Positions 9,084 to 48,658 of a stretch of 53,660 nt of DNA are shown one piece after another. The stretch is from the IMG/VR virus record IMGVR_UViG_3300045988_169069; one strand, written 5' to 3'. The first letter of the stretch is position 1; each line of letters begins with the position of its first letter. Under the pieces are notes generated by a model. The model was not told the DNA's origin and did not search any database. It was given only the letters and a program-made list of their open reading frames with translations. The stretch comes from a virus. A program made the translations under genes and the position numbers.

Positions 9084-9123
9084 AAAATAATAGCAGTCTT
9101 TTCTTAGTTGTTATTAGCTTTGG

Positions 9124-9166
9124 ACAGAGGTCACTAAGTTTTATAATTTAGTTGGCCTCTGTTTTA
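9124..9166 (+). terminator. Rho-independent terminator after the capsid gene
   Basis: ACAGAGGTCACTAA ... TTAGTTGGCCTCTGT long stem with one bulge, followed by TTTT. Confidence 0.6.
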
Positions 9167-9194
9167 GTTATAAACTGTATAAAGCAGGAAAAAA

Positions 9195-10631
9195 ATGGCA
9201 TACTTAAACGTATTCATAAACAATTCAAATAAGAATCCGATTAATGTAAACAGAGATACAAAACCTGTTCCTACTAGACCGGGCATAGACAAATGGGTGA
9301 AAGAACACATGGTGTTTTGGTATGATATGTCAAAGCCTGTGGATGTTTATGCGGAAAACTTTAATGATTGGACGAAATATCCCGTAAATGCCGATGTGGC
9401 TATAACAAGTACGACTTTCACTATAACAAGATTTGTAGCGGAAAATGATGTTGTTAAATGTTATATTCCTAGCAAAACAAAAAAATTCCCAGGAATGAAA
9501 GTGGAAGTGAAAGGTATAGTTGACGGGCAGGAATTATACTGGGGATATAGTGCTGATATTAAATTAGTGAATATCACATCAGACGGAACCTATGATATTC
9601 CGCCATTGGAAACTGTAAAAGGTAATCTGTCATTCAGAAACGGCAATATTGTTGGTGCTTGTAATATCACTATCACCCAGCTACCGTCAGGACAATCTGT
9701 TCCCACAAACGAAATACTAAAAGCCAATCCATACTTGCAGGATTTCAGTGGAAACAACAGACCGCTGAAACTTAACAATTTCCTGTTCGCGGCAATGAGC
9801 GGTGTGGGTGGGTATGATATTTCTAGTACCTATATTCTACCCGATAGAGCAAATGTTACTGTTACAGATAACAGAATTATTCATATTACTAAAAAACTAT
9901 CCACTACAGATAACATGGTAAACATAGTTCCGGCAAACTCTAACCCAACGCATAAGTTTAAGGTTACAGGTCTTTCTGATGGCAGACAAGTTAGTTTGGT
10001 AAACAGAAATGGCGGATTTTATACTTTTGACAACGGGGAACATGAGGTGACATTAACCTATCCCGAAGGAACCACTTCATTGTATAACGCCATAGGAGTT
10101 ACAGGGGGTATAGGAGATATGGACGTAACAATAGAGTTCCTGCCTAAATATCCCAACGCCCTAATAACAGATGGAGTGGATGATTACGGTGTTGTGGAGA
10201 ACTTGCAGCAGGGCGTGAAGGCATTGTTTTATACTTGTAACCCGTTCTCATTGAACAAAATATTTTATGACCAAAAAAAAACCGCTTCCGCAACTGAAGC
10301 ATTCTTTAGTATATATAATTCAAACAGTAAAATCGCTTACAATGACAGGAATACAGGTGGTGTTACATATATAGACGGAACTATTAATAATTTATTGTTA
10401 GCCAGTAATTTGTTGAATGTAAAGCATACAATAACCATAGTAAATGATGGCGCAACTGAAAGCAATACGATATCACCCATATATTTCAGTAGAAATCAAC
10501 GTGATAGTTATTTCGCAAACCTGGCTTTCTACAACTCCATAGGATTCGATTCAGTTCCCGCCAAAGAAACCGACGGATTCACAGAACAGGAATTGATTGA
10601 TTATGTACTTGAAAATATAATAACACAATGA
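9195..10631 (+). CDS. Structural/accessory protein with C-terminal LamG-like (concanavalin-type) domain
   Basis: 478 aa. ALITDGVDDYGVVENL resembles the LamG/Laminin_G_3 signature (xDGvdDYvxv). Lies after the capsid terminator and has noticeably more CCC/CCG/GGG codons than its neighbours. Confidence 0.5.
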   Translation: MAYLNVFINNSNKNPINVNRDTKPVPTRPGIDKWVKEHMVFWYDMSKPVDVYAENFNDWTKYPVNADVAITSTTFTITRFVAENDVVKCYIPSKTKKFPGMKVEVKGIVDGQELYWGYSADIKLVNITSDGTYDIPPLETVKGNLSFRNGNIVGACNITITQLPSGQSVPTNEILKANPYLQDFSGNNRPLKLNNFLFAAMSGVGGYDISSTYILPDRANVTVTDNRIIHITKKLSTTDNMVNIVPANSNPTHKFKVTGLSDGRQVSLVNRNGGFYTFDNGEHEVTLTYPEGTTSLYNAIGVTGGIGDMDVTIEFLPKYPNALITDGVDDYGVVENLQQGVKALFYTCNPFSLNKIFYDQKKTASATEAFFSIYNSNSKIAYNDRNTGGVTYIDGTINNLLLASNLLNVKHTITIVNDGATESNTISPIYFSRNQRDSYFANLAFYNSIGFDSVPAKETDGFTEQELIDYVLENIITQ

Positions 10632-10843
10632 GATACGTTATAGTAACAATAGAATGGTGTACGGAACACGGGATAGTTCCACCCGTTCACGCAAGAAGAA
10701 GTGTCGATGGAACAATGGTTCTGTTGCACGAGGATTTTATTGCACCTGTATTGGGAGAAGAAGGTATACCTTCATATCTATACGATAGCGAAGAGCTACA
10801 AGCTATTTTACAAAGTTTATTCACTGTAGAAGAACAAGAATAA
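10628..10843 (+). CDS. Small hypothetical protein
   Basis: 71-aa ORF with an ATGA overlap to the upstream gene. Confidence 0.55.
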   Translation: MRYVIVTIEWCTEHGIVPPVHARRSVDGTMVLLHEDFIAPVLGEEGIPSYLYDSEELQAILQSLFTVEEQE

Positions 10844-10845
10844 CC

Positions 10846-12144
10846 ATGGTAAGAGCAAATGATATACAAGAAAAATTATTGCATCTCATAGGATGGGAGC
10901 AAAATTATGATACGCAAGAACTTAAAATAGCTGACACTCTAACTGTAAGTGAAAGTGGCCTCTATTTTCAGCAAGTACATCCATTGCTAACTTTACAGAG
11001 TATTTCTAGTATAGCACCGGATTTCAAAAACATTGTGTATAGTGAATATAGCAATGAAAAACATTATGACAAAGGTAGCATCGTGAAATATGATGGAAAC
11101 TTGTACAAATCATTGCAACAGACCACAGGAAATCTGCCGACTGACCAAGAATTTTGGAGTGAAACAAACCCGCTTTCTGAATGGCTCGAAGGCAAAACGA
11201 AAGCTAGCATACAAAAAGCTATCGTTAGATATTGTAATGAGAAAATTGCAAAAGGAACATACAGAACATTGTGTGAAAACAGAACATTGTTTGATGGAAC
11301 TGGAAGACTAACTGACATTATTGCAAATAAAAATAATTTGGTAGGTTTTGAAATAGTTCCAATCAGGTCAAAAGGTGTTACTACTAGAATAAACAGAATC
11401 GGAATACAAACAGATGGAGTAGGTGAAATTAAGCTGTTCTTGTATCATTCATCTACTGAATTGCCAGTCAAGGTAATTACAGTAAATAAAACAAGTAAAG
11501 GCTTCCAATGGTTTGTAATACCTGACTTATATCTTCCATATGAATCTGAAGAAACTGAATCTGGGGGCAGTTGGTACTTAATGTACGAGCAATCTAAGTT
11601 AGGTAATATGCATGCTATAAGAAAAGATAAAGACTGGTCAAAAGAACCATGTAACAGCTGCTCAAGACGTGAAATGCAAGCATGGATGGCATGGTCTAAA
11701 TATCTGGAGATTCATCCTTTCAAAATCAGTGAAGAGTCGCTACAATATGAAGAAGATAAGCCACTACTTTGGGATATTGAGAATAACATGTATACATACG
11801 ATAATAACTATGGACTTAACCTAGATGTGTCTGTCAATTGCGATATAACAGATTTCATAATAGAACAAAGAATGCTATTCCAAGATGTAATTGCTAAGCA
11901 AGTAGCTGTTGATATGTTGAGAGAATTTGCATACAATCCAAACGTGAGAACAAACAGACATTCTATAAATGCTTCTAGAGTTGATATACTGTATGAAATT
12001 GATGGTGATTCATCATCAATGAAAAAATCAGGACTTAGCTATCAACTTGATTTGTCTTTCAAAGCTATCGAACTGAGCACTGAAGGAATAGACAGAGTAT
12101 GCTTGCCATGTAAAAATAATGGAATAAGATATTTAACAGTATGA
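10846..12144 (+). CDS. Hypothetical structural protein (neck/tail module) with short carbohydrate-binding-like motif
   Basis: 432 aa. KYDGNLYKSLQQTTGNLPTDQEFW resembles CBM5/12-type aromatic motifs. Position is between the capsid and tail genes. Confidence 0.5.
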   Translation: MVRANDIQEKLLHLIGWEQNYDTQELKIADTLTVSESGLYFQQVHPLLTLQSISSIAPDFKNIVYSEYSNEKHYDKGSIVKYDGNLYKSLQQTTGNLPTDQEFWSETNPLSEWLEGKTKASIQKAIVRYCNEKIAKGTYRTLCENRTLFDGTGRLTDIIANKNNLVGFEIVPIRSKGVTTRINRIGIQTDGVGEIKLFLYHSSTELPVKVITVNKTSKGFQWFVIPDLYLPYESEETESGGSWYLMYEQSKLGNMHAIRKDKDWSKEPCNSCSRREMQAWMAWSKYLEIHPFKISEESLQYEEDKPLLWDIENNMYTYDNNYGLNLDVSVNCDITDFIIEQRMLFQDVIAKQVAVDMLREFAYNPNVRTNRHSINASRVDILYEIDGDSSSMKKSGLSYQLDLSFKAIELSTEGIDRVCLPCKNNGIRYLTV

Positions 12145-12581
12145 ACCAAATTGAAGAGTTAATCGCAAAAATCATTGAGTTGAGAGATAACATAAATGAT
12201 TATATTCGTCTTGAAGTTATTGAAGATGAAGCCTTCATTTGCGATATGAACTCTGAAAACCAGTTGTTTGAGAAAGGCATTACAAGAGAAGGCATAAAGA
12301 TTAACAGTTATGCACCTTACTCTAAAAATACGATAGCTGTTAAAATCACAAAAGGGCAACCAACAAATAGAGTAACATTGAGAGATACTGGAGAATTCCA
12401 CGCATCGTTTGTAGTATATGCCGATGATACAAAATTCTTCATTGATGCAAAAGATTGGAAGACAAACAAATTAGGAGAAAAATACGGTGAAGAGATATTT
12501 GGCCTTACTGATGAAAATATAAATGAGCTTATTTGGGAATACATATATCCAGCATTAATGAATAAAGTCAGAAATCTATGA
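12141..12581 (+). CDS. Hypothetical head-tail/tail protein
   Basis: 146-aa ORF with 4-nt overlaps on both sides (translational coupling). Confidence 0.55.
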   Translation: MNQIEELIAKIIELRDNINDYIRLEVIEDEAFICDMNSENQLFEKGITREGIKINSYAPYSKNTIAVKITKGQPTNRVTLRDTGEFHASFVVYADDTKFFIDAKDWKTNKLGEKYGEEIFGLTDENINELIWEYIYPALMNKVRNL

Positions 12582-13213
12582 AAGAGAGCAGTGTACAAAT
12601 AAGATATAAAGATGAGCCTGTATTATTAGATAAAATCATACAGGATATGCAAAGAGCATTCACTGAAAAGTTGAAATGGCTCAATTACGCTTTTGGCCGT
12701 GCTTATAAACTCATTGAGCATCGTCCGGATGGTAATAAGTTCGTATATCCAGCGATATATAATGGAAATGGCGAATACGTATCACTTCTTCCAAATGATA
12801 ACTTTGGCAACTTCTCATGGTTTGATATATATGACCCTCAAGAAATAACTGAAGTCGTGCAATCATTACCGCAGTACGCATTTAGCGGGGCTGTTGTATT
12901 TTGGTATGATTTATGCAGTATCTATGATGACGAGACTGTATTACATACTGAAGAAGTGAAAGATGAAATCATAAGACTATTGACTACACCAGGTATCATA
13001 AATACTACTGGTAGATTGACTATAAACAAAATATATGAAAGATTCGAAAATATATACAAAGGTTATTCTATAGAAAAAATATACAATAACTATGTATATA
13101 AAGGAGAAGGTATACAAGATATTGATAAACAATTCTTTATGTACCCGTATGCAGGATTAAGGATAGAATTTTCACTAACAACTAGAGAATTATGCCAACG
13201 CTTTATCAAGTAG
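12578..13213 (+). CDS. Hypothetical tail-module protein
   Basis: 211-aa ORF in a coupled chain upstream of the tape measure gene. Confidence 0.55.
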   Translation: MKESSVQIRYKDEPVLLDKIIQDMQRAFTEKLKWLNYAFGRAYKLIEHRPDGNKFVYPAIYNGNGEYVSLLPNDNFGNFSWFDIYDPQEITEVVQSLPQYAFSGAVVFWYDLCSIYDDETVLHTEEVKDEIIRLLTTPGIINTTGRLTINKIYERFENIYKGYSIEKIYNNYVYKGEGIQDIDKQFFMYPYAGLRIEFSLTTRELCQRFIK

Positions 13214-38987: not shown

Positions 38988-40427
38988 ATGCTTACAGAAA
39001 AGGATTTGCATGTATACCAAAAAGCTTGCGTAGAACATATAATTGACAATCCATATTGTGGTGTATTCTTAGATATGGGCCTTGGCAAAACTGTTTCTAC
39101 ACTTACAGCTATTAACTATCTCATGAATGACTATTGCGAAATAAACTCTGTGCTTGTAATAGCTCCTAAAAGAGTTGCTGAGTCAGTATGGCAAGAAGAA
39201 GCAGAAAAATGGGAGCATTTAAAGCAATTGAGGTTTTCAAAGATAATAGGCAATGAAGCAGAGAGAATAAAAGCTATAAAAGCAAAAGCTGATGTATACA
39301 TAATATCAAGAGACAATGTAGCTTGGCTATGTGCATTGTTTGGTGGAGGTAAACTCCCATTTGACATGTGTGTAATAGATGAATTGAGTAGTTTTAAGAG
39401 CTATAAGTCACTGAGATTTAAAGCACTGAGAGCAGCAAGGCCTTTTATGAAACGACTAGTTGGCTTAACAGGAACTCCAGCTCCAAATGGCCTTATTGAT
39501 TTATGGCCGCAGATTTACCTGATGGACAGAGGCATTCGTTTAGAAAAGACTATAACGAGATACAGAGAAAAATACTTCCGTCCTGGTAAAACTAATGGTT
39601 CTATAGTGTATTCATATAATATTCTTGAAGATTCAGAAAAATTAATACACGAAAAAATAGAAGATATATGTATCAGTATGAAAGCGCAAGATTATTTAAG
39701 CATGCCTTTTAGAACTGATAACATAATAAAGCTTAGAATGCCAGACACTATAAAAAAGCAATACAATGATTTTGAGAAAAACAAGGTGCTAGATTTGATT
39801 AATACCACACAGACTGTAGAAGAGGAAGATGAGAATGGCAACTCAATATTTGTAGAAAAGCCGTTGGAAATAAATGTGGTTAATGCAGCTGCTCTTTCAA
39901 ATAAGTTACTGCAGTTTGCGAATGGCGCTGTGTATGATGAGGAAAGAAAAGTATTTCCAGTTCATAATATTAAACTTGAAGCTCTTAAAGAGATAATTGA
40001 AGATGCAAACGGCCAATCTGTGCTTGTTGCTTGGACATACCAATTTGACAGGGACAGAATCAAAGAATACCTAAAAGCCTATAAGCCAAGAGAGTTGAAA
40101 ACAAATAAAGATATACAAGAATGGAACGAAGGGAAAATTCAAGTAATGTTAGCACATCCAGCTTCAGCTGGACACGGCCTGAATTTACAGTCAGGAGGGA
40201 ATATAATAGTTTGGTTTGGCCAAACGTGGAGCCTAGAGCTATATCAACAGTTCAATGCTCGTTTGTACAGACAAGGACAGCAAAACCATGTGATTATAAA
40301 TCATCTTGTGATGCTTGGCACCCACGATGAAGACGTGATAAGTTCATTAAGACAGAAAGACAAAAAACAAAATTGCTTGATGGATAGCATCAAAGCAAAA
40401 ATTGAAAAATATAAAAAATTTTTATAG
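38988..40427 (+). CDS. SNF2-family helicase
   Basis: Motif I DMGLGKTVS, motif II VIDELSSFK, motif III LTGTPAPNG, and C-terminal SAGHGLNLQ and ARLYRQGQ. Confidence 0.9.
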   Translation: MLTEKDLHVYQKACVEHIIDNPYCGVFLDMGLGKTVSTLTAINYLMNDYCEINSVLVIAPKRVAESVWQEEAEKWEHLKQLRFSKIIGNEAERIKAIKAKADVYIISRDNVAWLCALFGGGKLPFDMCVIDELSSFKSYKSLRFKALRAARPFMKRLVGLTGTPAPNGLIDLWPQIYLMDRGIRLEKTITRYREKYFRPGKTNGSIVYSYNILEDSEKLIHEKIEDICISMKAQDYLSMPFRTDNIIKLRMPDTIKKQYNDFEKNKVLDLINTTQTVEEEDENGNSIFVEKPLEINVVNAAALSNKLLQFANGAVYDEERKVFPVHNIKLEALKEIIEDANGQSVLVAWTYQFDRDRIKEYLKAYKPRELKTNKDIQEWNEGKIQVMLAHPASAGHGLNLQSGGNIIVWFGQTWSLELYQQFNARLYRQGQQNHVIINHLVMLGTHDEDVISSLRQKDKKQNCLMDSIKAKIEKYKKFL

Positions 40428-40428
40428 T

Positions 40429-40935
40429 ATGAAAGAAAAAAGCTTATTCAAAGATTTTGTTGCATTTGTTAATAAAAATGTAGGTAAGGAAATTACAAGA
40501 AAGCAACTGTTTGAACTTAATTCAGAAAGAGTAAAAGCAGATGGATTCAGTGGCAACACTACAATCGACAGTTACAGGAATATAGCTACTAAACAAGGCT
40601 ATATTGAAATTATAACACAAGGCTGTTACAAAGTACTTAAACCAATTCCAGAAGATTATGTTATCATAAAAGATAAATTTGGAAAAAGCGACTGTATAAG
40701 AAAATCAGTAGACAGAACTCCAGAGTATCTTATATATGTAAGAGATTACATTAATGAGCATATGAAAAAAGGAGATATGCTCACACGTCGTGATGTATAC
40801 GATTTGATAATGCAAAAGTATTTTTATTTCGATTGCAAATCAATTGAAAACAGAACAAATAAATGCTTAGTAACATTTATAAATACTGGCAAGATTAAAA
40901 GAATTAGTCAAGGATATTATAGAATTATACAATAA
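40429..40935 (+). CDS. Protein with two copies of a ~65-aa winged-helix-like repeat
   Basis: ORF-track start 40402 is TTG inside the SNF2 gene; the ATG at 40429 follows its stop. The two halves align with each other and with the next ORF (F/Y-V/M-x-D/F-I/V-N ... G-x-E/M-I/L-T-R ... I-D/E-x-Y/R ... G-x-Y-x-V/I-L/I). Confidence 0.6.
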   Translation: MKEKSLFKDFVAFVNKNVGKEITRKQLFELNSERVKADGFSGNTTIDSYRNIATKQGYIEIITQGCYKVLKPIPEDYVIIKDKFGKSDCIRKSVDRTPEYLIYVRDYINEHMKKGDMLTRRDVYDLIMQKYFYFDCKSIENRTNKCLVTFINTGKIKRISQGYYRIIQ

Positions 40936-41177
40936 TGGCAAAATATTACCCTTACATGAGAGATTTCATCAATTCTAGAATTGGCCAAGAAATCACGAGA
41001 AATCAATTAATTGTTTTAGATGTGAATCTAGGTTTTAATACATCTAATAACACGATAGACAGATATAAGTCAGAGCTTATTAAACTAGGCGTGCTAAAAC
41101 GTGCTAAACACGGCGCATATACAGTTTTGAAAAAAGCTCCAGCTAAGCTATATAAAGAGCTAAAATGTGTTAAATAA
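40935..41177 (+). CDS. Single-copy paralogue of the same ~65-aa domain
   Basis: YYPYMRDFINSRIGQEITRNQL...NTIDRYKSELIKLGVLKRAKHGAYTVLK aligns to both repeats of the upstream ORF. Confidence 0.6.
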   Translation: MAKYYPYMRDFINSRIGQEITRNQLIVLDVNLGFNTSNNTIDRYKSELIKLGVLKRAKHGAYTVLKKAPAKLYKELKCVK

Positions 41178-41221
41178 TAAAGAATTATAGGAATAAATTT
41201 TGGTATATCAAAAAATATTTT

Positions 41222-41229
41222 TATATTTG
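41222..41229 (+). promoter_or_regulatory. Bacteroidota-type -7 box TAtaTTTG heading the nucleotide-modification operon
   Basis: TATATTTGCAGTGTAACA read directly, 33 nt upstream of the ATG at 41262. Confidence 0.5.
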
Positions 41230-41261
41230 CAGTGTAACAAAAACTTATAAATAATAACAAT

Positions 41262-43049
41262 ATGAACAGTTTACTTATTACATTAGGGCATGGCTCTTCA
41301 GCATTATTTGTGTACGACAAAGGTAGCAGCGTAATTGGCTACGAGCAAGAACGTCTTTCTGGAATCAAGGCAGATAGCCAGTTTCCAAAAGATGCTATAA
41401 ACGAAATTATCAATAACATTGGTATTCATAAAATGAGTGATTGTAATATATACATATCTCATTGGTTCAATGATTGTACACCTGATAATAAAGCACCGCA
41501 GAAAGTGTTTGAGAGTAAGTATATGACTCATACTGACCATTTGAATCTTCTCAACATATCGAAGAAAATTATCTTCGTAGATAAGAACTTTACGCATCAT
41601 GACGCGCACGCGTGGAGCGCATTCTCTTTCTTTGAACAGCACTTGGACAACACACAGATTGAGCCATATAGCAATAGAATTTGTACGATTGTGGCTGATG
41701 GTTTTGGAACAAATGAAGAGGTACTTTCTATTTATGAAAGCATCAAAGAAGATAACAAAATATCTGAACCAAGACTTATAAAAAGAGTTTTCGGCTATGA
41801 TGCGTCTATTGGATTGATGTATCAATACGCTACTTCATTCTGTGGTATGAAAGAAAACCAAGATGAATATAAGTTTTTAGGTTATGAATCACATATCGAT
41901 GAATACTTGAGTGAAGAAAGCATTGACGCATTAGACCATCTCATTGAATACAATGTAACAAATCTAAAAAAGATGTTTGATGCTAAATCTTCACCTGAAG
42001 ATGGTATACGGCATGCATCATGTGATGAAGAAAACATAATTAATTTCAACAAACTGTCAAATGTTCGCAAATACTGGTATACAACATTCCAAGCTGTTCT
42101 TGAAAACATTAACTTTGTATCTGAGAACAAAGAAACGTATGACTTTATTACGAGATGTATAATTGCATACTTTGTTCAGCAGACAGTTGAAATCTATTTT
42201 AGTCAAATTATTCATGACTATGATATGAGTAATGTGATAGTTGCAGGTGGATGTTTCTACAATGTAAAGCTCAATAATCGTATATTGGAATCTATTCCTG
42301 GCTTATTCTGCGCTATGCCATTAGCAGGCGACCAAGGCGCTGCAATTGGAATGTACAGAAAGTTTACTGGCGAAAACTTCAACTTTGGTAATTTGCTATT
42401 TGGCAAAAGAAGAATGTATAATGCAGAAAAAGCTTTTAGCAATAAAAAAGGTATATATTACTTCAAAGTTGCAGAAAACGGACTAAACAAAATTGCAACG
42501 TCAATAGCAAATGCTATTTCAGATGGTAACTTAGTGAATATTATATACGGGAATATGGAATTTGGCCCGCGTGCTCTTTGTTCTACATCAACGCTGTTTT
42601 TGCCTACCAAAGAAAACGTGGCAAATAACAACCATATGAATAACAGAAATGAGGTTATGCCATGCGCTCCTGTATGTACACAGAAAAATGCTGAGAAGCT
42701 ATTCGGTGAAAGTATTCATAGAGTTGTAGGCTCAAATCGTTTCATGATTTGCACACATGAATATGAGAAACCTTTCTCAAATCAATATGCAGGCGTAATG
42801 CACAAGAAAACATTGGAAGATAATATATATACAGGCCGTCCTCAAATAGTCAGTGAAAAAGAAATCTTGATTAATATGATACTTAACAAGGTTGAAGCTA
42901 TATGTGATGCCAAATGCTTAGTGAATACAAGCTTTAACGTGCATGGACGTCCAATTGTATTTGATGTAAAGGATATACTACAAAACTTTGAATATCAGCG
43001 AGAACATGCTGTTTCTGGAAAAGAGCCGCTGTTATTTGTAATTGAATAA
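41262..43049 (+). CDS. Carbamoyltransferase, NodU/CmcH/TobZ family
   Basis: 595 aa. N-terminal LLITLGHGSSALFVYDKGSSVIGYEQERLSGIKADSQFP and HHDAHAWSAF, the ASKHA/Kae1-like metal motif of Carbam_trans_N. C-terminal NTSFNVHGRPIV is the Carbam_trans_C signature. Confidence 0.8.
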   Translation: MNSLLITLGHGSSALFVYDKGSSVIGYEQERLSGIKADSQFPKDAINEIINNIGIHKMSDCNIYISHWFNDCTPDNKAPQKVFESKYMTHTDHLNLLNISKKIIFVDKNFTHHDAHAWSAFSFFEQHLDNTQIEPYSNRICTIVADGFGTNEEVLSIYESIKEDNKISEPRLIKRVFGYDASIGLMYQYATSFCGMKENQDEYKFLGYESHIDEYLSEESIDALDHLIEYNVTNLKKMFDAKSSPEDGIRHASCDEENIINFNKLSNVRKYWYTTFQAVLENINFVSENKETYDFITRCIIAYFVQQTVEIYFSQIIHDYDMSNVIVAGGCFYNVKLNNRILESIPGLFCAMPLAGDQGAAIGMYRKFTGENFNFGNLLFGKRRMYNAEKAFSNKKGIYYFKVAENGLNKIATSIANAISDGNLVNIIYGNMEFGPRALCSTSTLFLPTKENVANNNHMNNRNEVMPCAPVCTQKNAEKLFGESIHRVVGSNRFMICTHEYEKPFSNQYAGVMHKKTLEDNIYTGRPQIVSEKEILINMILNKVEAICDAKCLVNTSFNVHGRPIVFDVKDILQNFEYQREHAVSGKEPLLFVIE

Positions 43050-43053
43050 TTAT

Positions 43054-43725
43054 ATGAGCAATACTAAATTTGTAGTTTTTTCTGGTGGTTGTTATTCTGG
43101 TAAAACAACCACCATGAAAAAAGCGAAAGAAATATTTGAGAAGCGCGGACTAAAAGTAGTCATGCTAGATGAACTTATAAGGTCTTCAAAACTAGATTGC
43201 AGTATAGACTTGATTCGTAAATCTCCAAGTAGATATTTGCAATTGCAGAATGAAGTAATTATTGGGAAAATCGAGCAAGAAAGAATTCAGCATTTCATGG
43301 ATGAAAAATGTGTTGTATTATGCGACAGAGCTATAACTGATTCAATATTCTATCTTACATTTTATGTAGATAAGTCTCAGCTAACAAGAGATGAATTGCA
43401 GTTACTAGAAGATTTATATGCATATACTGATGAATACGCAAAGTATGCATTCAGCAATGTGTATGACGTAATATATGAGTTTAAGCCATTAAATAATACA
43501 GACAATGATGATACATTCAGGCCAGATGCAATTGATATATCTAAGTTATATGAGCATAGAATGATTAGTACATTGAATACTGCTTACATATCAGATGTTA
43601 ATTGCACTTGTGAACGTTTTTGCATTGATTTAAATACAGTTGAACACAAGAGCAGTATTGAATTTGTTTTCAATACATTAGCTTCGCGTTTTATTAAAGA
43701 ATTAAACCATGGTAACAAATCCTGA
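43054..43725 (+). CDS. P-loop kinase (deoxynucleotide/deoxynucleoside kinase-like)
   Basis: Walker A VVFSGGCYSGKTTT and the dNK-like block VVLCDRAITDSIFY. ORF-track start 43042 is TTG; the first ATG is at 43054. Confidence 0.6.
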   Translation: MSNTKFVVFSGGCYSGKTTTMKKAKEIFEKRGLKVVMLDELIRSSKLDCSIDLIRKSPSRYLQLQNEVIIGKIEQERIQHFMDEKCVVLCDRAITDSIFYLTFYVDKSQLTRDELQLLEDLYAYTDEYAKYAFSNVYDVIYEFKPLNNTDNDDTFRPDAIDISKLYEHRMISTLNTAYISDVNCTCERFCIDLNTVEHKSSIEFVFNTLASRFIKELNHGNKS

Positions 43726-44470
43726 TTTGATATTTACACCTGGATGGAGGTATGTATATGACAGATTCATAAAAGAAGCATATACAAATGCAAGAGGCTT
43801 TAAAGAAGCCATAGGGTTTAGCTATTCATTCGACCCTCGAATGGACCACTGTATGAGTACAAATACTTCATTGTTTGAACTAAGAAAAGCTGCTGCTATG
43901 TATTTTTGGTATAAGCATGCTGACCAATCAGACTTATCTATCATCGAATATTTTGATGAATACAAAAGATGCATTGATGAAAAAAATAACAAATTCAATT
44001 CAAATTATGGATATTATGCATACACACTTGGTGGTTTAAAAAGCTGTATAAAAAAGCTTGCAGACAATCCATATACTAGGCATGCAATGTTTTGTATAAA
44101 TAATATGTATGCTATGAGTGATGCTTCTATAGATAAGCTTTGTACAAATGCTATTCATTTTTTCATAAAGAATAAAATGCTGTTTATGGTTGTACAAATG
44201 AGGTCATCTAATTTTATAACGTTGCTTCCATATGATGCATTTATGTTTTCTGTATTTTATGCCCATGTTTACAATGGGATAAGAAGAAAAATAAATGATT
44301 TGGCTATTGGCAATATTAAAATGCAAGTCGCATCTTTGCATTTTCATGCCAATGATATTTGTAAAATAAAACAAACCGAAGAAATAGATAGCAATATTAT
44401 TGGTGATATGGCTAATAATAATTGGTGTATATTTCTTGAGGATAAATTGCTTAAAGCTATTCAAAAATGA
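43709..44470 (+). CDS. Divergent thymidylate-synthase-fold protein (ThyA/dCMP-hydroxymethylase superfamily), paralogue 1
   Basis: NSNYGYY, NPYTRHA, Cys motif DKLCTNAIHFF, and QMRSSNFITLLPYD aligning without gaps to E. coli ThyA RSCDVFLGLPFN. The final residue is Asp instead of Asn177, and D169 is replaced by N. Confidence 0.6.
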   Translation: MVTNPDLIFTPGWRYVYDRFIKEAYTNARGFKEAIGFSYSFDPRMDHCMSTNTSLFELRKAAAMYFWYKHADQSDLSIIEYFDEYKRCIDEKNNKFNSNYGYYAYTLGGLKSCIKKLADNPYTRHAMFCINNMYAMSDASIDKLCTNAIHFFIKNKMLFMVVQMRSSNFITLLPYDAFMFSVFYAHVYNGIRRKINDLAIGNIKMQVASLHFHANDICKIKQTEEIDSNIIGDMANNNWCIFLEDKLLKAIQK

Positions 44471-44730
44471 ATGATGAAGATAAAACATTGCAACTCATAT
44501 TAGAATATGTGAAGCAAAATAATAAGATACTCAGAGCTAATTATTCATTGTTACAAGAAAACAATGCTCTTCTTAAATATATTAAGAATGAGATAGATAG
44601 GGAATTTAGCACTGAGAATTTGCTTAAGGTTGAAGGAGTCATATTCCTAGCTAATATAGTTGCAAATGTTATATCCAATATCATTTATCATGATTACTTT
44701 GAAGATAAATCTAAGTATAAACAACATTAA
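44467..44730 (+). CDS. Small hypothetical protein with C-terminal hydrophobic helix
   Basis: 87-aa ORF with an ATGA overlap to the upstream gene. Confidence 0.5.
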   Translation: MNDEDKTLQLILEYVKQNNKILRANYSLLQENNALLKYIKNEIDREFSTENLLKVEGVIFLANIVANVISNIIYHDYFEDKSKYKQH

Positions 44731-44741
44731 AATTAATTATT

Positions 44742-44882
44742 ATGCCAGTACATAAAGTTAAAGGTGGTTACCAATTTGGTACAACAGGGAAAGTATATCC
44801 AACTAAGGCTCAAGCTGAAAAGCAAGCAGCTGCTATTTATGCTAGTGGTTATAAAGAAAAAAGTTCATCAAAGAAAAAATAA
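44742..44882 (+). CDS. Possible 46-aa protein (below ORF-track cutoff)
   Basis: Hand translation MPVHKVKGGYQFGTTGKVYPTKAQAEKQAAAIYASGYKEKSSSKKK. This explains the region better than the 5' extension of the 44764 ORF. Confidence 0.45.
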   Translation: MPVHKVKGGYQFGTTGKVYPTKAQAEKQAAAIYASGYKEKSSSKKK

Positions 44883-44889
44883 ACAAGCA

Positions 44890-45384
44890 ATGGATAATAT
44901 TAAAGTACTCAGAGTTAGAGACGTAAAGTTGCCTGAAAGAGGAACAAGTCTATCAGCAGGAATTGATTTTTTCATTCCAAATGATTTCAAAGAAACAACA
45001 CTGCTGCCACATACAGATATACTTATTCCGAGCGGAATATGCGTTGGCCTTCCAAAAGATACTATGCTAATGGGAGCTGAAAAATCTGGAATAGCTTCAT
45101 CCAAATCTGCAAAAGAGAGTTGTGGAATGAAAACAAAAGTGACAGCACATAATACGAGCTTAATAGTCGGTGCAAAAATAGTAGATGAAGATTATCCTGG
45201 CGAAGTACATTTGCACATTGTAAATGTTGGCAATAGAGTAGCGCATTTGACACCTGGGATGAAAATAACACAATTTATTATAGTCCCAGTGTTGTATTCT
45301 GCAGTAGAAGAAGTGTTCGAAAAAGAAGATTTATCTATTGCTAAAACTGACCGAATTGGTGGCTTTGGCTCAACTGGAGTTTAG
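44890..45384 (+). CDS. dut: Trimeric dUTPase-family enzyme with an internal insertion
   Basis: Motifs SAGIDFF, KIVDEDYPGE, GMKITQ and C-terminal DRIGGFGSTG. Start set at MDNIK (44890). An extra segment of about 30 aa (AEKSGIASSKSAKESCGMKTKVTAHNTS) lies between motifs II and III. Confidence 0.8.
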   Translation: MDNIKVLRVRDVKLPERGTSLSAGIDFFIPNDFKETTLLPHTDILIPSGICVGLPKDTMLMGAEKSGIASSKSAKESCGMKTKVTAHNTSLIVGAKIVDEDYPGEVHLHIVNVGNRVAHLTPGMKITQFIIVPVLYSAVEEVFEKEDLSIAKTDRIGGFGSTGV

Positions 45385-45406
45385 CCTGGATATACATAAT
45401 TTCATT

Positions 45407-45468
45407 TCTGGGATGACTTTTATATTTTAATAATAGATTAATAGTCAGCTAAGAGAAGTCATCCCAGA
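45407..45468 (+). terminator. Long-loop palindrome / terminator-like element closing the operon
   Basis: 13-bp perfect arms TCTGGGATGACTT (45407-45419) and AAGTCATCCCAGA (45456-45468) with a 36-nt AT-rich loop. Confidence 0.5.
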
Positions 45469-45481
45469 ATAGCCTAAAATA
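45465..45481 (+). promoter_or_regulatory. Copy of the 17-nt intergenic motif CAGAATAGCCTAAAATA
   Basis: Read directly, 21 nt upstream of the ATG at 45503. Overlaps the right arm of the palindrome. Confidence 0.5.
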
Positions 45482-45502
45482 TATAAACTTTTTTTAATTA
45501 CC

Positions 45503-46006
45503 ATGACAGAAGAAAAAATGCCTCATGGCGCAAAAAGAGTTCGATGCTCTATTAAAAAGAAAACAACTGAGATTCCACAAGTCATTTATACAGAACAATT
45601 TTTCAGATTTGTGGCTATTTATGCTGACAGGTTTAAAGCTACAAATGGATATGGTAGATGGCTTGCTGAATATAAATGGATGGATGAGCATGGATGGTTT
45701 AAGCCAGAAAAGTTAAGAGAACTTTATATAGATATATTAAAAGATACAAGCACTTTATCTTATGTATACTGGGACGCTGTGTATTGTATTTGCGCACAAG
45801 CTCTTGATGCTGCTAAGGCCTTTGCTTCTGCAAACTCATTTGATATTAGAGTTATAACTGGCGAAATTGCTGTAAATGATGATGGCGAAGAGCTTACAGA
45901 CTTATCTATAGAAGAAGCAATAAGTATTTGCAATTCTATGAATGAAGAAGCAGAAGAGATATTATTTAAAGTTTATAACAGTAATACTAATAAAGTGGTA
46001 AAATGA
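45503..46006 (+). CDS. Hypothetical protein
   Basis: 167-aa ORF with an ATGA overlap to the downstream nucleotidyltransferase-like gene. Confidence 0.55.
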   Translation: MTEEKMPHGAKRVRCSIKKKTTEIPQVIYTEQFFRFVAIYADRFKATNGYGRWLAEYKWMDEHGWFKPEKLRELYIDILKDTSTLSYVYWDAVYCICAQALDAAKAFASANSFDIRVITGEIAVNDDGEELTDLSIEEAISICNSMNEEAEEILFKVYNSNTNKVVK

Positions 46007-46725
46007 CAGACAAAGAAAAAATAGCAGATGCTGCGAATAATATGGAGAATAAATATATAAAAAATATACCTGAAAACTTTTGGTTTCTCAGATTTTTAGA
46101 CCAATATATGCAAGGTCATAAAGGCTTTATAGCTGGCGGTTGTTTTAAGAACATTCTCTCAAGAGAAAAAGTGAAAGATGTAGATATTTTCTTTCACAAT
46201 CAATCTGATTTTGATGAGGCTGTTGCACACTTTAATAGCTTAGTTAAAGAGGGCACATGGACTTTTAAATATAGAAATAACAAGGCTTGTGCCTTTCAAG
46301 AAAAAGGCAGTTCTATGTGGGTAGAACTTATTGAATCAGTATTTGGAACGCCTGAAGATATTCTGAATAATTTCGACTTTACCATTACTAAGTTTGCATA
46401 TTACAAGGAGATAGTTCCTGATAATGTGACTAGTATGCCCGCTGATGAGAGTGAAGATTTTCCTTTTGATGACAGCGATGATAAATGGCATTGGGAATAT
46501 ATGCTACTATATCATAGAGATTTTTTTGAGCACTTGCATCAAAAGCGCTTAGTACTAGACAACAAAATTCCTTTTCCAATATCTACTTGGGAGCGCTCAT
46601 ACCGGTATAAGGGTTACGGCTATAACCTCTGTAGAGAATCAAAGAAAAAGTTACTTGACGCTATTAGAAATACAACACCTAAAGATGATGAGTTATCGAT
46701 GTATAATATAGGAGGATGGGATTAG
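46003..46725 (+). CDS. Minimal pol-beta-superfamily nucleotidyltransferase-like protein
   Basis: FIAGGCFKNILSREKVKDVDIFF matches the GG...x(n)...DxD head-domain pattern of CCA-adding/poly(A)-polymerase-type NTases. The rest is unassigned. Confidence 0.45.
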   Translation: MTDKEKIADAANNMENKYIKNIPENFWFLRFLDQYMQGHKGFIAGGCFKNILSREKVKDVDIFFHNQSDFDEAVAHFNSLVKEGTWTFKYRNNKACAFQEKGSSMWVELIESVFGTPEDILNNFDFTITKFAYYKEIVPDNVTSMPADESEDFPFDDSDDKWHWEYMLLYHRDFFEHLHQKRLVLDNKIPFPISTWERSYRYKGYGYNLCRESKKKLLDAIRNTTPKDDELSMYNIGGWD

Positions 46726-46726
46726 T

Positions 46727-46864
46727 ATGGGAAAAATGCAATATGGAGTATTTGGCTCAGTAGGTAAATTACTAAGATACTTTAATACCTACAAACAGGC
46801 TGAGACTTTTAAAATATCTCGGCAAAGATACGATTGGAGTGTTAAACAAATTTGGGTAAAATAG
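46727..46864 (+). CDS. Possible 45-aa protein (below ORF-track cutoff)
   Basis: Hand translation MGKMQYGVFGSVGKLLRYFNTYKQAETFKISRQRYDWSVKQIWVK fills the gap before the second ThyA-like gene. Confidence 0.35.
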   Translation: MGKMQYGVFGSVGKLLRYFNTYKQAETFKISRQRYDWSVKQIWVK

Positions 46865-46866
46865 TT

Positions 46867-47547
46867 ATGAACATAGCTTATAAAAATGCAACAGAAGCCT
46901 TTGAAGATTTATACGGCTTTATAATGGGCCAAGGCATATACACCAATGTTGGAACAAAAGCAGTTTACAACGTTGGCTTTTATCTACTCAATCCAGAGCA
47001 AAGAGTTATAACTACTGAGTGGCGCAAATTCAGTGAGAAATATGCAGAAAGAGAATTTGCTTGGTATATGTCAGGAGACAGGAGTGTAGAAAACATTAAG
47101 AAGTATGCTCCCATATGGGATAAAATGCATGGTGGTGATAACATAGTTAATTCTAATTATGGTTATCAATGGATGCGTAATGGCCAATTAGAAAAATGCA
47201 TAAAACAGCTCAAAGAAAATAAGAATACACGCCAAGCTTGGCTTACCATATTCGATGGCAAAGAGAAGGATGACTATATGTATGATACACCGTGCACACT
47301 ATCAATTGGCTTTGATATTAAACCGCAGATTGGAACATTAGATATGTGTGTTACAATGCGTTCAAATGATTTGGTATATGGCTTTTGTAATGACCAATAT
47401 TGTTTCACAAAATTGCAGAAAATGGTGGCTGATGAGCTTGGCGTGCCAATAGGTACATATTACCATTTTGCTCATGATTTGCATATTTACAGAAAGCATT
47501 TTGATATGATAGAAAAGTTTTACGGTAAAAGATACGATAAATTATGA
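46867..47547 (+). CDS. ThyA-fold pyrimidine hydroxymethylase/methylase-like enzyme, paralogue 2 (dCMP-hydroxymethylase-like)
   Basis: NSNYGYQW, NTRQA, catalytic-Cys motif DTPCTLSIGF, and MRSNDLVYGFCND aligning gap-free to ThyA RSCDVFLGLPFN with Asp at the Asn177 position. ORF-track start 46852 is a non-ATG codon; the ATG at 46867 gives MNIAYK. Confidence 0.75.
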   Translation: MNIAYKNATEAFEDLYGFIMGQGIYTNVGTKAVYNVGFYLLNPEQRVITTEWRKFSEKYAEREFAWYMSGDRSVENIKKYAPIWDKMHGGDNIVNSNYGYQWMRNGQLEKCIKQLKENKNTRQAWLTIFDGKEKDDYMYDTPCTLSIGFDIKPQIGTLDMCVTMRSNDLVYGFCNDQYCFTKLQKMVADELGVPIGTYYHFAHDLHIYRKHFDMIEKFYGKRYDKL

Positions 47548-47735
47548 AAAAGAGTTTAAAAATATTATGGTTAATACTGGGCTTTTTATATTGTCCAGTA
47601 TATTTTATGTGTATAGTAATGCATTTTGTAGCTAGAATCATACTAGCAATATGCTACTTTGGCATGTTTGAAAAAAGAATGGCAATTGATATATTAAACA
47701 ATTTATTTAGCAAATATGGAAGAAGAATCAAATAA
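47544..47735 (+). CDS. Small membrane protein
   Basis: 63 aa with two hydrophobic segments (ILWLILGFLYCPVYFMCIVMHFVARIILAICYF) and an ATGA overlap. Confidence 0.5.
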   Translation: MKKSLKILWLILGFLYCPVYFMCIVMHFVARIILAICYFGMFEKRMAIDILNNLFSKYGRRIK

Positions 47736-48624
47736 CCTATCGAACGAAGAGCTAGCTAAATTCGTAGACGAAATAGAAAATGATGACCAAGACTACGATG
47801 AAAGCGTAGCAGAAAGCATACGTAGAATACAATACGAAGAAATGCTACAAAATGATTTGCTTCCTGAAGAGATGATGAATGATAGGGCTTGGGGCTATAC
47901 AAGAAGAGCTCAACGGGATGAAAACAATGAAATCAAACGTGACGAATCAGGAAAGCCTTTGATAGAATTCAAGCCTGTTACTTATACAGAAAAAAGAGCA
48001 GAGTGGGACCATACAGTCTCTGTTTGGAAAAAAGCAAGAGAAAATAAACGGCTAGAAATAAAAAGACGCAAGCTTGAAATTCAAAAAGAAGCCCTCAATT
48101 CTGAGTTCATAAATATATATTCTAAACTTGAAGTGGAGCATAAAAAACTGCTAATCAAGCTCCTTACTGATGAATATTCAAAAGTAATGGTTAGAAGTGA
48201 GGCTTTTATCAACAGGCGTGTAGAAGCTTTATTAAAGAATTATATTCCTGTAAGCTTGAGAAGATGTTTTGCGCAATACAGAGAAGCATTTATTGTGAAT
48301 CCTGGATTTTTATACATTGCAAGCGAAGAATATGGTGAAGGCAAATCTATATGGGTCACTCCTAAATTACCGTATTATTTTACGCAAGGAACTGAACTAG
48401 GAATACTTAAAGAAAACGAAGCATTTTATCTATTTAAGATAGATAAAGCAGTAGTTCAATTCCATACAGCGAAAGACATGCTTTCCAAACGTGAATTGCA
48501 ATATGCAGTTAAGCTAAGAGACATAAGAACGTTTTATCAGTTAGCTAACAAAATGCCATTTTGGTATGATACATTAGTACAAGAATTGAAAAGGCAAGCT
48601 GATGAGAAACAAAATGGCGTATAA
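47716..48624 (+). CDS. Hypothetical protein (acidic N-terminus, basic/coiled middle)
   Basis: 302-aa ORF, the last plus-strand gene, followed by a bidirectional terminator. Confidence 0.55.
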   Translation: MEEESNNLSNEELAKFVDEIENDDQDYDESVAESIRRIQYEEMLQNDLLPEEMMNDRAWGYTRRAQRDENNEIKRDESGKPLIEFKPVTYTEKRAEWDHTVSVWKKARENKRLEIKRRKLEIQKEALNSEFINIYSKLEVEHKKLLIKLLTDEYSKVMVRSEAFINRRVEALLKNYIPVSLRRCFAQYREAFIVNPGFLYIASEEYGEGKSIWVTPKLPYYFTQGTELGILKENEAFYLFKIDKAVVQFHTAKDMLSKRELQYAVKLRDIRTFYQLANKMPFWYDTLVQELKRQADEKQNGV

Positions 48625-48625
48625 G

Positions 48626-48658
48626 AAAATAGGCTAAGAAATCGTCTTAGCCTATTTT
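48626..48658. terminator. Bidirectional rho-independent terminator between convergent genes
   Basis: Perfect 14-bp stem AAAATAGGCTAAGA / TCTTAGCCTATTTT with a 5-nt loop. A/T runs on both sides. Confidence 0.75.

Follow-up and report, generated by a model that had tools for sequence, protein, structure and literature searches.

Introduction

A phage-encoded carbamoyltransferase that acts on 5-hydroxymethylcytosine (5hmC) has been described in eLife (Yang et al., 2021; PMC8670742), and it makes 5-carbamoyloxymethyl-dC (5cmdC) in a reaction that needs carbamoyl phosphate and ATP. The enzyme works best on single-stranded DNA and more weakly on double-stranded DNA, also accepts 5-hydroxymethyl-dCTP (5hmdCTP), and is inactive on 5-methyl-dCTP (5mdCTP) and 5-hydroxymethyl-dUTP (5hmdUTP). 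On cytosine-modified contigs it co-occurs with thymidylate synthase (TS) homologues, and PRA-PH (MazG-like) pyrophosphatase and dCMP deaminase domains are found together with it as well (PMC8670742). The subject of the present work is the IMG/VR virus record IMGVR_UViG_3300045988_169069, whose 53,660 nucleotides were analysed as a whole and are called the window here, and in particular a gene block of this record that begins with a homologue of that carbamoyltransferase. The core of the block most likely replaces cytosine in the phage DNA with 5-carbamoyloxymethylcytosine (5cmC).

The window encodes a large terminase, a portal protein, a tape-measure protein, a family-A DNA polymerase, a primase-helicase and an SNF2-type helicase, and it looks like a complete or near-complete genome, of about 53 kb, of a gut siphophage of Bacteroides type. 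The original prediction for this DNA, made from the letters alone, had read the block as an operon that 5-hydroxymethylates a pyrimidine and then O-carbamoylates it. All the genes that it listed are present on the plus strand where it had placed them, every motif that it quoted is found in the translations, and its core chemistry is very probably right, since the first gene encodes a full-length homologue of the 5hmC carbamoyltransferase. The accompanying statement that no characterised phage pathway of this kind was known does not hold, because the enzyme, its product 5cmdC and its genomic association with thymidylate synthase (ThyA) homologues were already published in 2021 (PMC8670742). What is new here is that the system is placed in a widespread Bacteroides-phage lineage with cultured members, together with a recurrent kinase resembling deoxynucleoside kinases (dNK), an atypical dUTPase and a remodelled ThyA paralogue.

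The carbamoyltransferase and its conserved neighbours

The argument is carried by five genes, given here with their positions in the window:

41262..43049, + strand: 5hmC O-carbamoyltransferase homologue, 595 aa, with a Kae1-like N domain and a YrdC-like C domain
43042..43725, + strand: P-loop kinase of the dNK/thymidylate kinase (TMPK) fold, 227 aa; predicted 5-hydroxymethyl-dCMP (5hm-dCMP) kinase, functional analogue of T4 gp1
43709..44470, + strand: ThyA-1, a ThyA-fold paralogue of 253 aa without the catalytic Glu58 and without Asp169
44893..45384, + strand: predicted trimeric dUTPase-family nucleotide pyrophosphatase, 163 aa
46852..47547, + strand: ThyA-2, predicted dCMP 5-hydroxymethylase of the T4 gp42 type, 231 aa; alternative ATG start at 46867

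The protein encoded at 41262-43049 matches the Pfam domains Carbam_trans_N (6e-17) and Carbam_trans_C (2e-28), both above the cutoff, as well as phrog_1601 (1e-62), and these profiles uphold its earlier placement among the NodU/CmcH/TobZ-type enzymes. Its BLASTP alignment with the characterised 5hmC carbamoyltransferase, whose sequence was taken as printed in PMC8670742, extends over the full length at 34% identity (E 4e-95). The solved canonical O-carbamoyltransferases match it at E values from 6e-16 (best) to 5e-7 (TobZ), mostly over the C-terminal half, and the NodU model scores 55 bits against a cutoff of 1000. Judged by these alignments, the window enzyme is far closer to the characterised 5hmC enzyme than to any solved O-carbamoyltransferase.

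Residue patterns point in the same direction. The metal-site motif, composed of H112, H113, D114, H116 and D146, is invariant in 20 family members including the characterised enzyme. The positions of W408, G421 and R423 in TobZ separate the carbamoyltransferases that modify DNA from the others (PMC8670742); they were mapped by motif spacing in the canonical enzyme 7xb6 and by alignment offsets, not by a direct alignment with TobZ, and correspond on this basis to I427, C440 and T442 in the window enzyme. The characterised enzyme has I, C and T as well, and 7xb6 has W, G and R at identical spacing, inside a GPRAL motif.

Homologues of the window enzyme at E <= 1e-5 number 1138, the best 120 of which were listed, and gene neighbourhoods were compared in 80 IMG/VR viral loci that carry a homologue with 33-100% identity (single loci are named by L numbers below). 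In most of these 80 viral homologues, the first diagnostic position is occupied by an aliphatic residue or by Thr, the second by Cys and the third by Thr. Distant members of the family are found in Acinetobacter phages and in the Xanthomonas phage Xp15.

In 71 of the 80 loci, the carbamoyltransferase gene has a ThyA-family gene no more than 9 kb away, and most of the nine exceptions are truncated contigs. The conserved core across the loci consists of the carbamoyltransferase, the kinase, ThyA-1, the dUTPase-family enzyme and ThyA-2. Phages whose carbamoyltransferase has an identity of about 46% or more keep the genes in one order: SNF2 helicase, carbamoyltransferase, kinase, ThyA-1, (orf87), dUTPase, (orf167), ThyA-2, and then the open reading frames (ORFs) orf63 and orf302.

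ThyA-2 and the predicted modified base

ThyA-2 matches the Pfam family Thymidylat_synt at 1e-27, which confirms its predicted TS/hydroxymethylase fold, and its best solved relatives are the CMP hydroxymethylase MilA (7e-19) and the dCMP hydroxymethylase of T4 (9e-15). In E. coli numbering it keeps E58, Y94, C146, R166, S167, D169, H207 and Y209, and has Asp in place of N177 and Thr in place of H147; in T4 numbering it retains Glu60, Cys148 and Asp179, together with the phosphate-binding Arg and Ser. The reference sequences of E. coli ThyA and T4 gp42 were checked against known residue numbers and a printed PDB alignment. These residues predict a canonical dCMP hydroxymethylase of the T4 gp42 type. 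That its product would be 5hm-dCMP, and not 5-methyl-dCMP or dTMP, is suggested only by the linkage to a carbamoyltransferase that is directed to hydroxyl groups.

Position N177 of the E. coli enzyme (D179 in T4) sets the specificity for uracil versus cytosine in the ThyA fold, as restated in PMC8670742, where Asp at this position and a residue other than His at 147 are the states found on modified contigs. All 87 distinct ThyA sequences that lie beside carbamoyltransferases have Asp177 and lack His at 147. The original prediction had left the base as either C or U; because both ThyA genes of the window carry Asp at N177, the predicted modified base is cytosine, not uracil, and the inactivity of the characterised carbamoyltransferase on 5hmdUTP agrees with this.

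Two kinds of unusual ThyA genes were seen among the loci. In L040 (8210-8998), L041, L044 (8174-8998), L045 and L053 (7806-8840), a variant with Gln for Glu58 and Glu for Asp169 is the sole ThyA gene within 9 kb of the carbamoyltransferase gene, and most of these variants also have Lys or Glu in place of Tyr209, which L053 keeps. Some hydroxymethylases may be able to do without the catalytic Glu, or these genomes may carry another ThyA elsewhere. In L076 (10933-12465), the ThyA homologue beside the carbamoyltransferase is extended at its N-terminus by about 250 aa that match no Pfam family.

ThyA-1, a remodelled paralogue

ThyA-1 scores 22.7 bits against the Pfam thymidylate synthase family, just below the cutoff of 24.3, and matches phrog_160 at 6e-15; its best match to a solved structure by sequence is the T4 dCMP hydroxymethylase. 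The same enzyme is the closest in a Foldseek search with an AlphaFold2 (AF2) model of pLDDT 91, which matches the ThyA fold at TM-scores of 0.63-0.69. The fold assigned to this gene from the start is thereby upheld, although it is not a second ordinary hydroxymethylase, since Glu58 and the pterin-binding Asp169 have been lost. Glu58 is replaced by Met, Ile, Leu or Val in all members examined (an alignment of 60 sequences and the ORFs of the loci), and Asp169 by Asn in all 60 aligned sequences, with a few divergent locus members keeping Asp. Gly173 is replaced by Leu, Met or Asn, and the W80-W83 segment by an invariant F-x-E-Y-x-x-C, for which the exact equivalences depend on the alignment and the counterpart of W80 is not relied on. 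The family keeps Cys146, Arg126, Arg166, Ser167, Tyr94, His207 and Asp177, and 41 columns are invariant in 40 sequences. Taken together, the residues suggest that ThyA-1 probably binds a dCMP-type nucleotide and may attack C6, and that it cannot carry out the canonical folate chemistry.

Within the search made, ThyA-1 turned up in these phages only. Its gene always follows directly on the kinase gene, and it is always accompanied by a canonical hydroxymethylase, either of the ThyA-2 type or, in L013, T4-like; the two exceptions are contigs that end at the ThyA-1 stop codon. L025, L069 and most distant loci have the carbamoyltransferase and one canonical ThyA without ThyA-1, and such loci with a single ThyA are often ordered carbamoyltransferase, kinase, ThyA, from which it follows that ThyA-1 occupies the ancestral slot. 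In the 168-kb contig L013, the region 9001-12945 holds the carbamoyltransferase, the kinase and ThyA-1, followed by a T4 gp42-like hydroxymethylase (176 bits) in place of the ThyA-2 type. As a clean case of a constrained protein of the TS fold without the canonical catalytic Glu, ThyA-1 merits biochemistry.

The kinase

By sequence, the kinase is recognised by Pfam as AAA_28 and gives weak matches to PHROGs of 'thymidylate kinase', and its homologues match the Pfam dNK domain and, weakly, TIGR00041. A search of PDB sequences returned nothing significant. With an AF2 model built from 35 sequences (pLDDT 89), the top Foldseek matches are deoxyadenosine kinase (dAK), deoxycytidine kinase (dCK), a multisubstrate dNK and TMPK, with probability 1.0 and TM-scores of 0.5-0.66. 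The P-loop GGCYSGKTT and the D95-R96 motif are invariant in the family, and the kinase gene adjoins the carbamoyltransferase gene in 42 of the 80 loci.

A phage that builds 5-hydroxymethyl-dCTP (5hm-dCTP) needs a 5hm-dCMP kinase, as T4 needs gp1. No other kinase was found among the window ORFs scanned, and the role is given to this protein because the pathway needs such an enzyme and it is the only candidate found in the window. From its modelled fold and the analogy with T4, we infer that it would act as the 5hm-dCMP kinase.

A second possibility raised by the original prediction was a kinase of the 5-HMUDK type, which would activate the 5-hydroxymethyl group on DNA. When the kinase family profile was compared with the ORFs of phage M6, only the 21-residue P-loop could be aligned, and membership in 5-HMUDK was rejected; the M6 record is unannotated, and the 5-HMUDK candidate was chosen because the half of the genome in question has no other small ORF with a P-loop. 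A tblastn search with the kinase against 50,697 phage records found Bacteroides phages only and no 5-HMUDK phage. Neither sequence nor fold thus lends support to this assignment, and a hint of a role at the level of DNA comes only from distant loci. There, kinase homologues of about 430 aa occur (L023, 10742-12031; L028, 6670-7944; L037, 11137-12411; L056, 10888-12201; the same length in L024 and L079), the C-terminal half of which is a domain of the uracil-DNA glycosylase (UDG) superfamily, family-4-like, with GEAPG and HP(T/A) motifs. The fusion could point to a substrate in DNA, or to nothing more than the repair of uracil. Neither a UDG-like domain nor a separate UDG-like ORF was found in the window.

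The dUTPase-family enzyme

The predicted dUTPase gene is borne out by Pfam (1e-11; 44.8 bits against a cutoff of 22), by phrog_135 (2e-22) and by the dUTPases in PDB (1e-11), with the correction that its true start is the ATG at 44893 and not the GTG at 44764. Motifs 1, 3, 4 and 5 are present; motif 2 reads KSG for RSG, and about 21 aa are inserted between it and motif 3. The KSG form is found in all dUTPase-family homologues that are linked to carbamoyltransferases, and the insertion of about 21 aa in the subclade of the window. By family, the enzyme would supply dCMP or dUMP and exclude dCTP or dUTP.

Proposed pathway and alternative readings

The products of the module can be arranged in a pathway from dCMP to 5cmC. 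The first and weakest step would be the supply of dCMP, in which the dUTPase-family enzyme would hydrolyse dCTP and/or dUTP to the monophosphate, so that dCMP would be fed into the pathway and unmodified dCTP and dUTP would be kept from the DNA. In the second step, suggested by the conserved catalytic residues, ThyA-2 would turn dCMP, methylene-tetrahydrofolate and water into 5hm-dCMP. For the third, fold and pathway necessity point to the kinase, which like T4 gp1 would phosphorylate 5hm-dCMP; a host NDP kinase would then give 5hm-dCTP, to be incorporated by the family-A polymerase of the phage. In the fourth step, homology predicts that the carbamoyltransferase would form carbamoyl-AMP from carbamoyl phosphate and ATP and O-carbamoylate the 5-CH2OH group, either of 5hm-dCTP before its incorporation or of nascent single-stranded DNA after it. 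The best guess for ThyA-1 is that of a regulatory or partner subunit, or else of a folate-independent step on a 5-substituted dCMP. That the outcome would be 5cmC in place of cytosine is considered probable, by a clear distance from certainty.

Several points weigh against this pathway. An identity of 34%, as an alignment value, does not guarantee the same acceptor. Neither a MazG/PRA-PH-type dCTPase nor a dCMP deaminase was found among the window ORFs scanned, and the exclusion of dCTP would therefore depend on the predicted role of a dUTPase-family protein with an atypical motif 2. The UDG fusions hint that the kinase family might work on DNA, and with ThyA-1 in the module the end product could differ from 5cmC. 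In the literature searched, 5cmdC is documented as an in-vitro product, with no report of it in the virion DNA of an isolated phage; on 5cmdC and the phages of Bacteroides fragilis, nothing was found there beyond PMC8670742, a methods review that names the enzyme and a review that lists the name of a phage. The last point comes from the base composition of the phage. The sequence GATC is nearly eliminated from the genome, with 2 sites (14768 and 23640) for 134 expected (z = -11.4), and the modification has therefore not relieved the selection exerted by GATC-directed host systems. The observed/expected ratio of GATC is 0-0.16 in most related loci (L006-L022, L069, L084) and in the corresponding region of the cultured phage BF486P2, and about 1 in distant phages with a carbamoyltransferase; other C-containing palindromes of four bases are at expectation, with a ratio of 0.73 for CATG. 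Whatever it is that targets GATC, the predicted modification of cytosine evidently gives no protection from it, which is a caveat on the presumed role against restriction.

The alternative that survives best, though it is an unlikely one, is that the pathway ends in something other than 5cmC. Either the carbamate or a phosphate put on by the kinase would then act as a leaving group; ThyA-1 would re-form an exocyclic-methylene intermediate without folate, and another nucleophile would be added. Activation of 5-hydroxymethyl pyrimidines through a leaving group is established in thymidine hypermodification. ThyA-1 itself speaks for such a role through its strong conservation (the 41 invariant columns), its retention of the residues from Cys146 to Asp177 listed above together with the loss of Glu58, Asp169 and Gly173, the translational coupling of its gene to those of the kinase and the carbamoyltransferase, and the fact that it never occurs without a canonical hydroxymethylase. 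However, it is an add-on, since L025, L069 and most distant loci manage without it, the scans of Pfam, PHROG and NCBIfam revealed no candidate in the module for the transfer of a nucleophile or the supply of an amine, and the pattern of residues is explained, too, if ThyA-1 serves as a regulator or as a partner without catalysis of its own. If it were true, an undescribed hypermodification of cytosine and a new type of reaction for the thymidylate synthase fold would have been found.

Somewhat less likely again is a reading in which the kinase works in the manner of 5-HMUDK and adds phosphate to the 5-hydroxymethyl group, be it in DNA or in the nucleotide, so that a phosphorylated or further substituted hydroxymethylcytosine would stand beside 5cmC or replace it. 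The coupling of the kinase gene to the carbamoyltransferase gene is compatible with this, and so are the kinase-UDG fusions of the distant loci, as the UDG fold binds flipped-out bases of DNA, yet the window has no such domain. The matches by fold and by Pfam are to kinases of small nucleosides and nucleotides (dNK, dCK, TMPK), the similarity to the M6 candidate is confined to the P-loop, and no 5-HMUDK phage was matched by tblastn. Moreover, the route through 5hm-dCTP requires a dNMP kinase, for which no other candidate was found, and carbamoylation and phosphorylation would compete for one and the same hydroxyl group.

The idea that the carbamoyltransferase has an acceptor other than nucleic acid, which the original prediction had also listed, is very unlikely. 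According to it, the enzyme would belong to auxiliary metabolism and act on a sugar, a lipid or an antibiotic-like molecule, and its ThyA, kinase and dUTPase neighbours would be there by chance, as common genes of nucleotide supply. PHROGs files the family in this sense, with 'moron, auxiliary metabolic gene' as its category and Nol-like carbamoyltransferase as its name, and cyanophage carbamoyltransferases of the Nol-like kind exist, but these match only half of the protein, at 25-26% identity. The linkage to an Asp177-type ThyA is near-universal in the 80 loci, which belong to very different phages, and the I/C/T signature and the 34% identity are common to the window enzyme and the DNA-modifying one.

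A uracil or thymine product, 5-carbamoyloxymethyl-dU made from dUMP supplied by the dUTPase, is the least credible of all, for although the dUTPase-family gene sits between both ThyA genes and dUMP hydroxymethylases are known in other hypermodifying phages, residue 177 is Asp and not Asn in both ThyA proteins and in all 87 homologues, and the characterised carbamoyltransferase is inactive on 5hmdUTP.

Organisation and boundaries of the gene block

From 41262 onwards, the plus-strand run comprises the genes for the carbamoyltransferase, the kinase, ThyA-1, orf87, the dUTPase-family enzyme, orf167, a nucleotidyltransferase (NTase)-like protein and ThyA-2, and then orf63 and orf302. The features that accompany the five core genes are the following:

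41199..41229, + strand: candidate promoter of the Bacteroidota type (TTTG, 19-nt spacer, TATATTTG)
44467..44730, + strand: orf87, small conserved protein, the start of which overlaps the stop of ThyA-1 (ATGA)
45406..45469, no strand: inverted repeat with perfect 14-nt arms (45406-45419 and 45456-45469) and a 36-nt spacer, located between the dUTPase gene and orf167
45503..46006, + strand: orf167, accessory ORF, present in 11 of the 80 loci
46003..46725, + strand: accessory gene for a pol-beta-type NTase-like protein, 240 aa, phrog_4400
47544..48624, + strand: orf63 and orf302, co-oriented and overlapping, conserved with the module in the clade
48626..48658, + strand: strong intrinsic terminator, with a 14-bp stem and a T-rich tail, which closes the plus-strand block

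The tight packing on one strand that had been described for these genes is reflected in overlaps of 4-17 nt between carbamoyltransferase and kinase, kinase and ThyA-1, ThyA-1 and orf87, orf167 and the NTase-like gene, and ThyA-2 and orf63. The end that had been set at 47547 is too early, since it is followed by two co-oriented ORFs that are conserved in the clade, orf63 (47544-47735) and orf302 (47716-48624), of which the first is kept behind ThyA-2 in 14 loci and the second in 17. Neither has a family match in the scans of the family libraries (for orf302, Pfam, PHROG and NCBIfam). The genes past the terminator are on the minus strand.

As for the promoter proposed at 41222, the TATATTTG box exists there and is well placed, with a TTTG 19 nt upstream and inside the 84-nt gap before the carbamoyltransferase gene, but the motif is indistinguishable from chance within the window. 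The consensus is that of the Bacteroides promoter literature. TAnnTTTG is found 78 times for 79 expected, and the composite of TTTG and box is found twice for 1.9 expected; since neither exceeds chance in the window, the call relates to position only.

The palindromic element that had been noticed after the dUTPase gene is real, and as RNA it folds significantly better than shuffled sequences, with a stem of 16 bp and -22.4 kcal/mol (z = -3.8). The variable segment of orf167 and the NTase-like gene has this element at its upstream edge. One arm of the palindrome (TTCTGGGATGGCTT) recurs with one mismatch at 250-263, near the left end of the window, where there is no partner arm and hence no second copy of the palindrome.

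Other regions of the window offer two further observations. The ORF at 1660-2298, directly upstream of the large terminase gene, has NUMOD1 and I-HmuI-like NUMOD DNA-binding domains and is possibly a relative of homing endonucleases. Upstream of the module, at 40402-41177, there are two adjoining paralogous small ORFs of 177 and 80 aa, the smaller of which matches a segment of the larger with about 40% identity.

Accessory genes and relatives of the module

The NTase-like protein has a weak match to the 'nucleotidyltransferase' phrog_1614 (2e-9) and a visible pol-beta signature, GG-x12-DVD; Pfam and NCBIfam gave no match, and a search of PDB sequences nothing significant. A comparison of the window (46003-46725) with L002 (5823-7003) and L084 (11545-12249) shows its gene to be polymorphic, present or absent, between phages that are 97-99% identical. 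L002, one such 97-99% identical phage, is without it and has orf167 directly next to ThyA-2, and none of the other IMG/VR loci has it either; homologues are common in phages of Streptococcus thermophilus, Listeria and Bacillus, which lack a module of this kind. For these reasons, it is treated as accessory. No Pfam, PHROG or NCBIfam match was obtained for orf167, and both genes, which had been counted as members of the operon, appear from their distribution to be accessory passengers outside the conserved module.

A small protein of the opposite kind is encoded by orf87. It has no match in Pfam, PHROG or NCBIfam, and it is 71% identical to the ORF in the same position of phage BF486P2, the best value in the module, where the enzymes reach 41-62%. 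A coiled-coil-like N-terminus and a hydrophobic C-terminal stretch can be seen in its sequence.

In 43 of the 80 loci, the carbamoyltransferase gene is preceded, at a distance of a few hundred bases to about 3 kb, by an SNF2-family helicase gene (38988-40427 in the window; also in L004 and L050-L083), and the linkage extends to very distant phages, with 27% identity between the helicases. It could reflect shared synteny of the replication module, or a functional link, as the characterised enzyme prefers single-stranded DNA.

The module is complete in six cultured sewage phages of Bacteroides fragilis, each of about 53 kb and BF486P2 among them, and its five core genes stand in the same order there. 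It includes the NTase-like ORF, which in BF486P2 occupies the same position and is 56% identical to that of the window. In the records of these phages, the carbamoyltransferase and the kinase are 'hypothetical', and both ThyA proteins are named 'deoxycytidylate 5-hydroxymethyltransferase'. A megablast search with the region against the 50,697 phage records gave no match, and relatives surface at the protein level only.

Significance

Modification of the 5cmC type may be common among the gut phages that infect Bacteroides, because many of the homologues (1138 in all, the best 120 of them listed) lie on phage contigs of about 50 kb. If it is, it would affect the escape from restriction and CRISPR, the sequencing of gut viromes by bisulfite- and APOBEC-based methods and by nanopores, and the cloning and engineering of phages. 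The cultured B. fragilis phages with the same module (BF486P2, BF503P1 and relatives) make the natural occurrence of 5cmdC testable. There is also a gap in annotation, as databases call the carbamoyltransferase 'Nol-like' auxiliary metabolic or hypothetical, and ThyA-1 a dCMP hydroxymethylase.

Comparison with known systems

With TobZ, NodU, CmcH and GdmN, the window carbamoyltransferase has in common the two-domain architecture, the HHDAH metal-site motif and, as may be inferred, a two-step chemistry via a carbamoyl-adenylate. It differs from them in the remoteness of the similarity (E 6e-16 to 5e-7), in having I/C/T for W/G/R, and in its acceptor, which is predicted to be a nucleobase and not a sugar or a macrolactam.

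The predicted pathway resembles that of T4 for hydroxymethylcytosine (gp56, gp42, gp1 and the glucosyltransferases), in which a pyrophosphatase, a ThyA-fold hydroxymethylase and a kinase act before replication and the 5-CH2OH group is decorated afterwards. The decoration would be a carbamoyl group here and is glucose in T4, and the pyrophosphatase has the trimeric dUTPase fold here and is MazG-like in T4. The kinase of the window is dNK/TMPK-like and not detectably related to gp1, which the library of the PDB search is expected to hold and for which nothing significant was returned. A second ThyA-fold paralogue comparable to ThyA-1 is missing from T4.

The thymidine hypermodification systems with 5-HMUDK (M6, ViI, PhiW-14, SP10; PMC5889632, PMC8989533) likewise have a gene cluster in which a ThyA-fold hydroxymethylase is accompanied by a P-loop kinase and by enzymes for the further elaboration of the 5-hydroxymethyl group. 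They work on 5-hydroxymethyluracil in DNA, with (pyro)phosphate as the leaving group and transferases of the glycosylase fold, whereas the base of the window is predicted to be cytosine, its kinase has only the P-loop in common with the M6 candidate, and no gene of the aGPT-Pplase type was found in the module.

The closest system is the 5cmdC system found by MetaGPA (PMC8670742). Unlike it, the window is without a PRA-PH (MazG-like) pyrophosphatase and a dCMP deaminase, and has instead a trimeric dUTPase-family gene, a kinase of the dNK/TMPK fold, kinases not being mentioned in that paper, and a second, remodelled ThyA; its host lineage is of the Bacteroides type. Both systems have a two-domain enzyme of the NodU/TobZ type, with 34% identity over the full length and the same I/C/T residues, and in both it is encoded on a contig of a tailed phage, next to a thymidylate synthase homologue with Asp177 and a residue other than His at 147.

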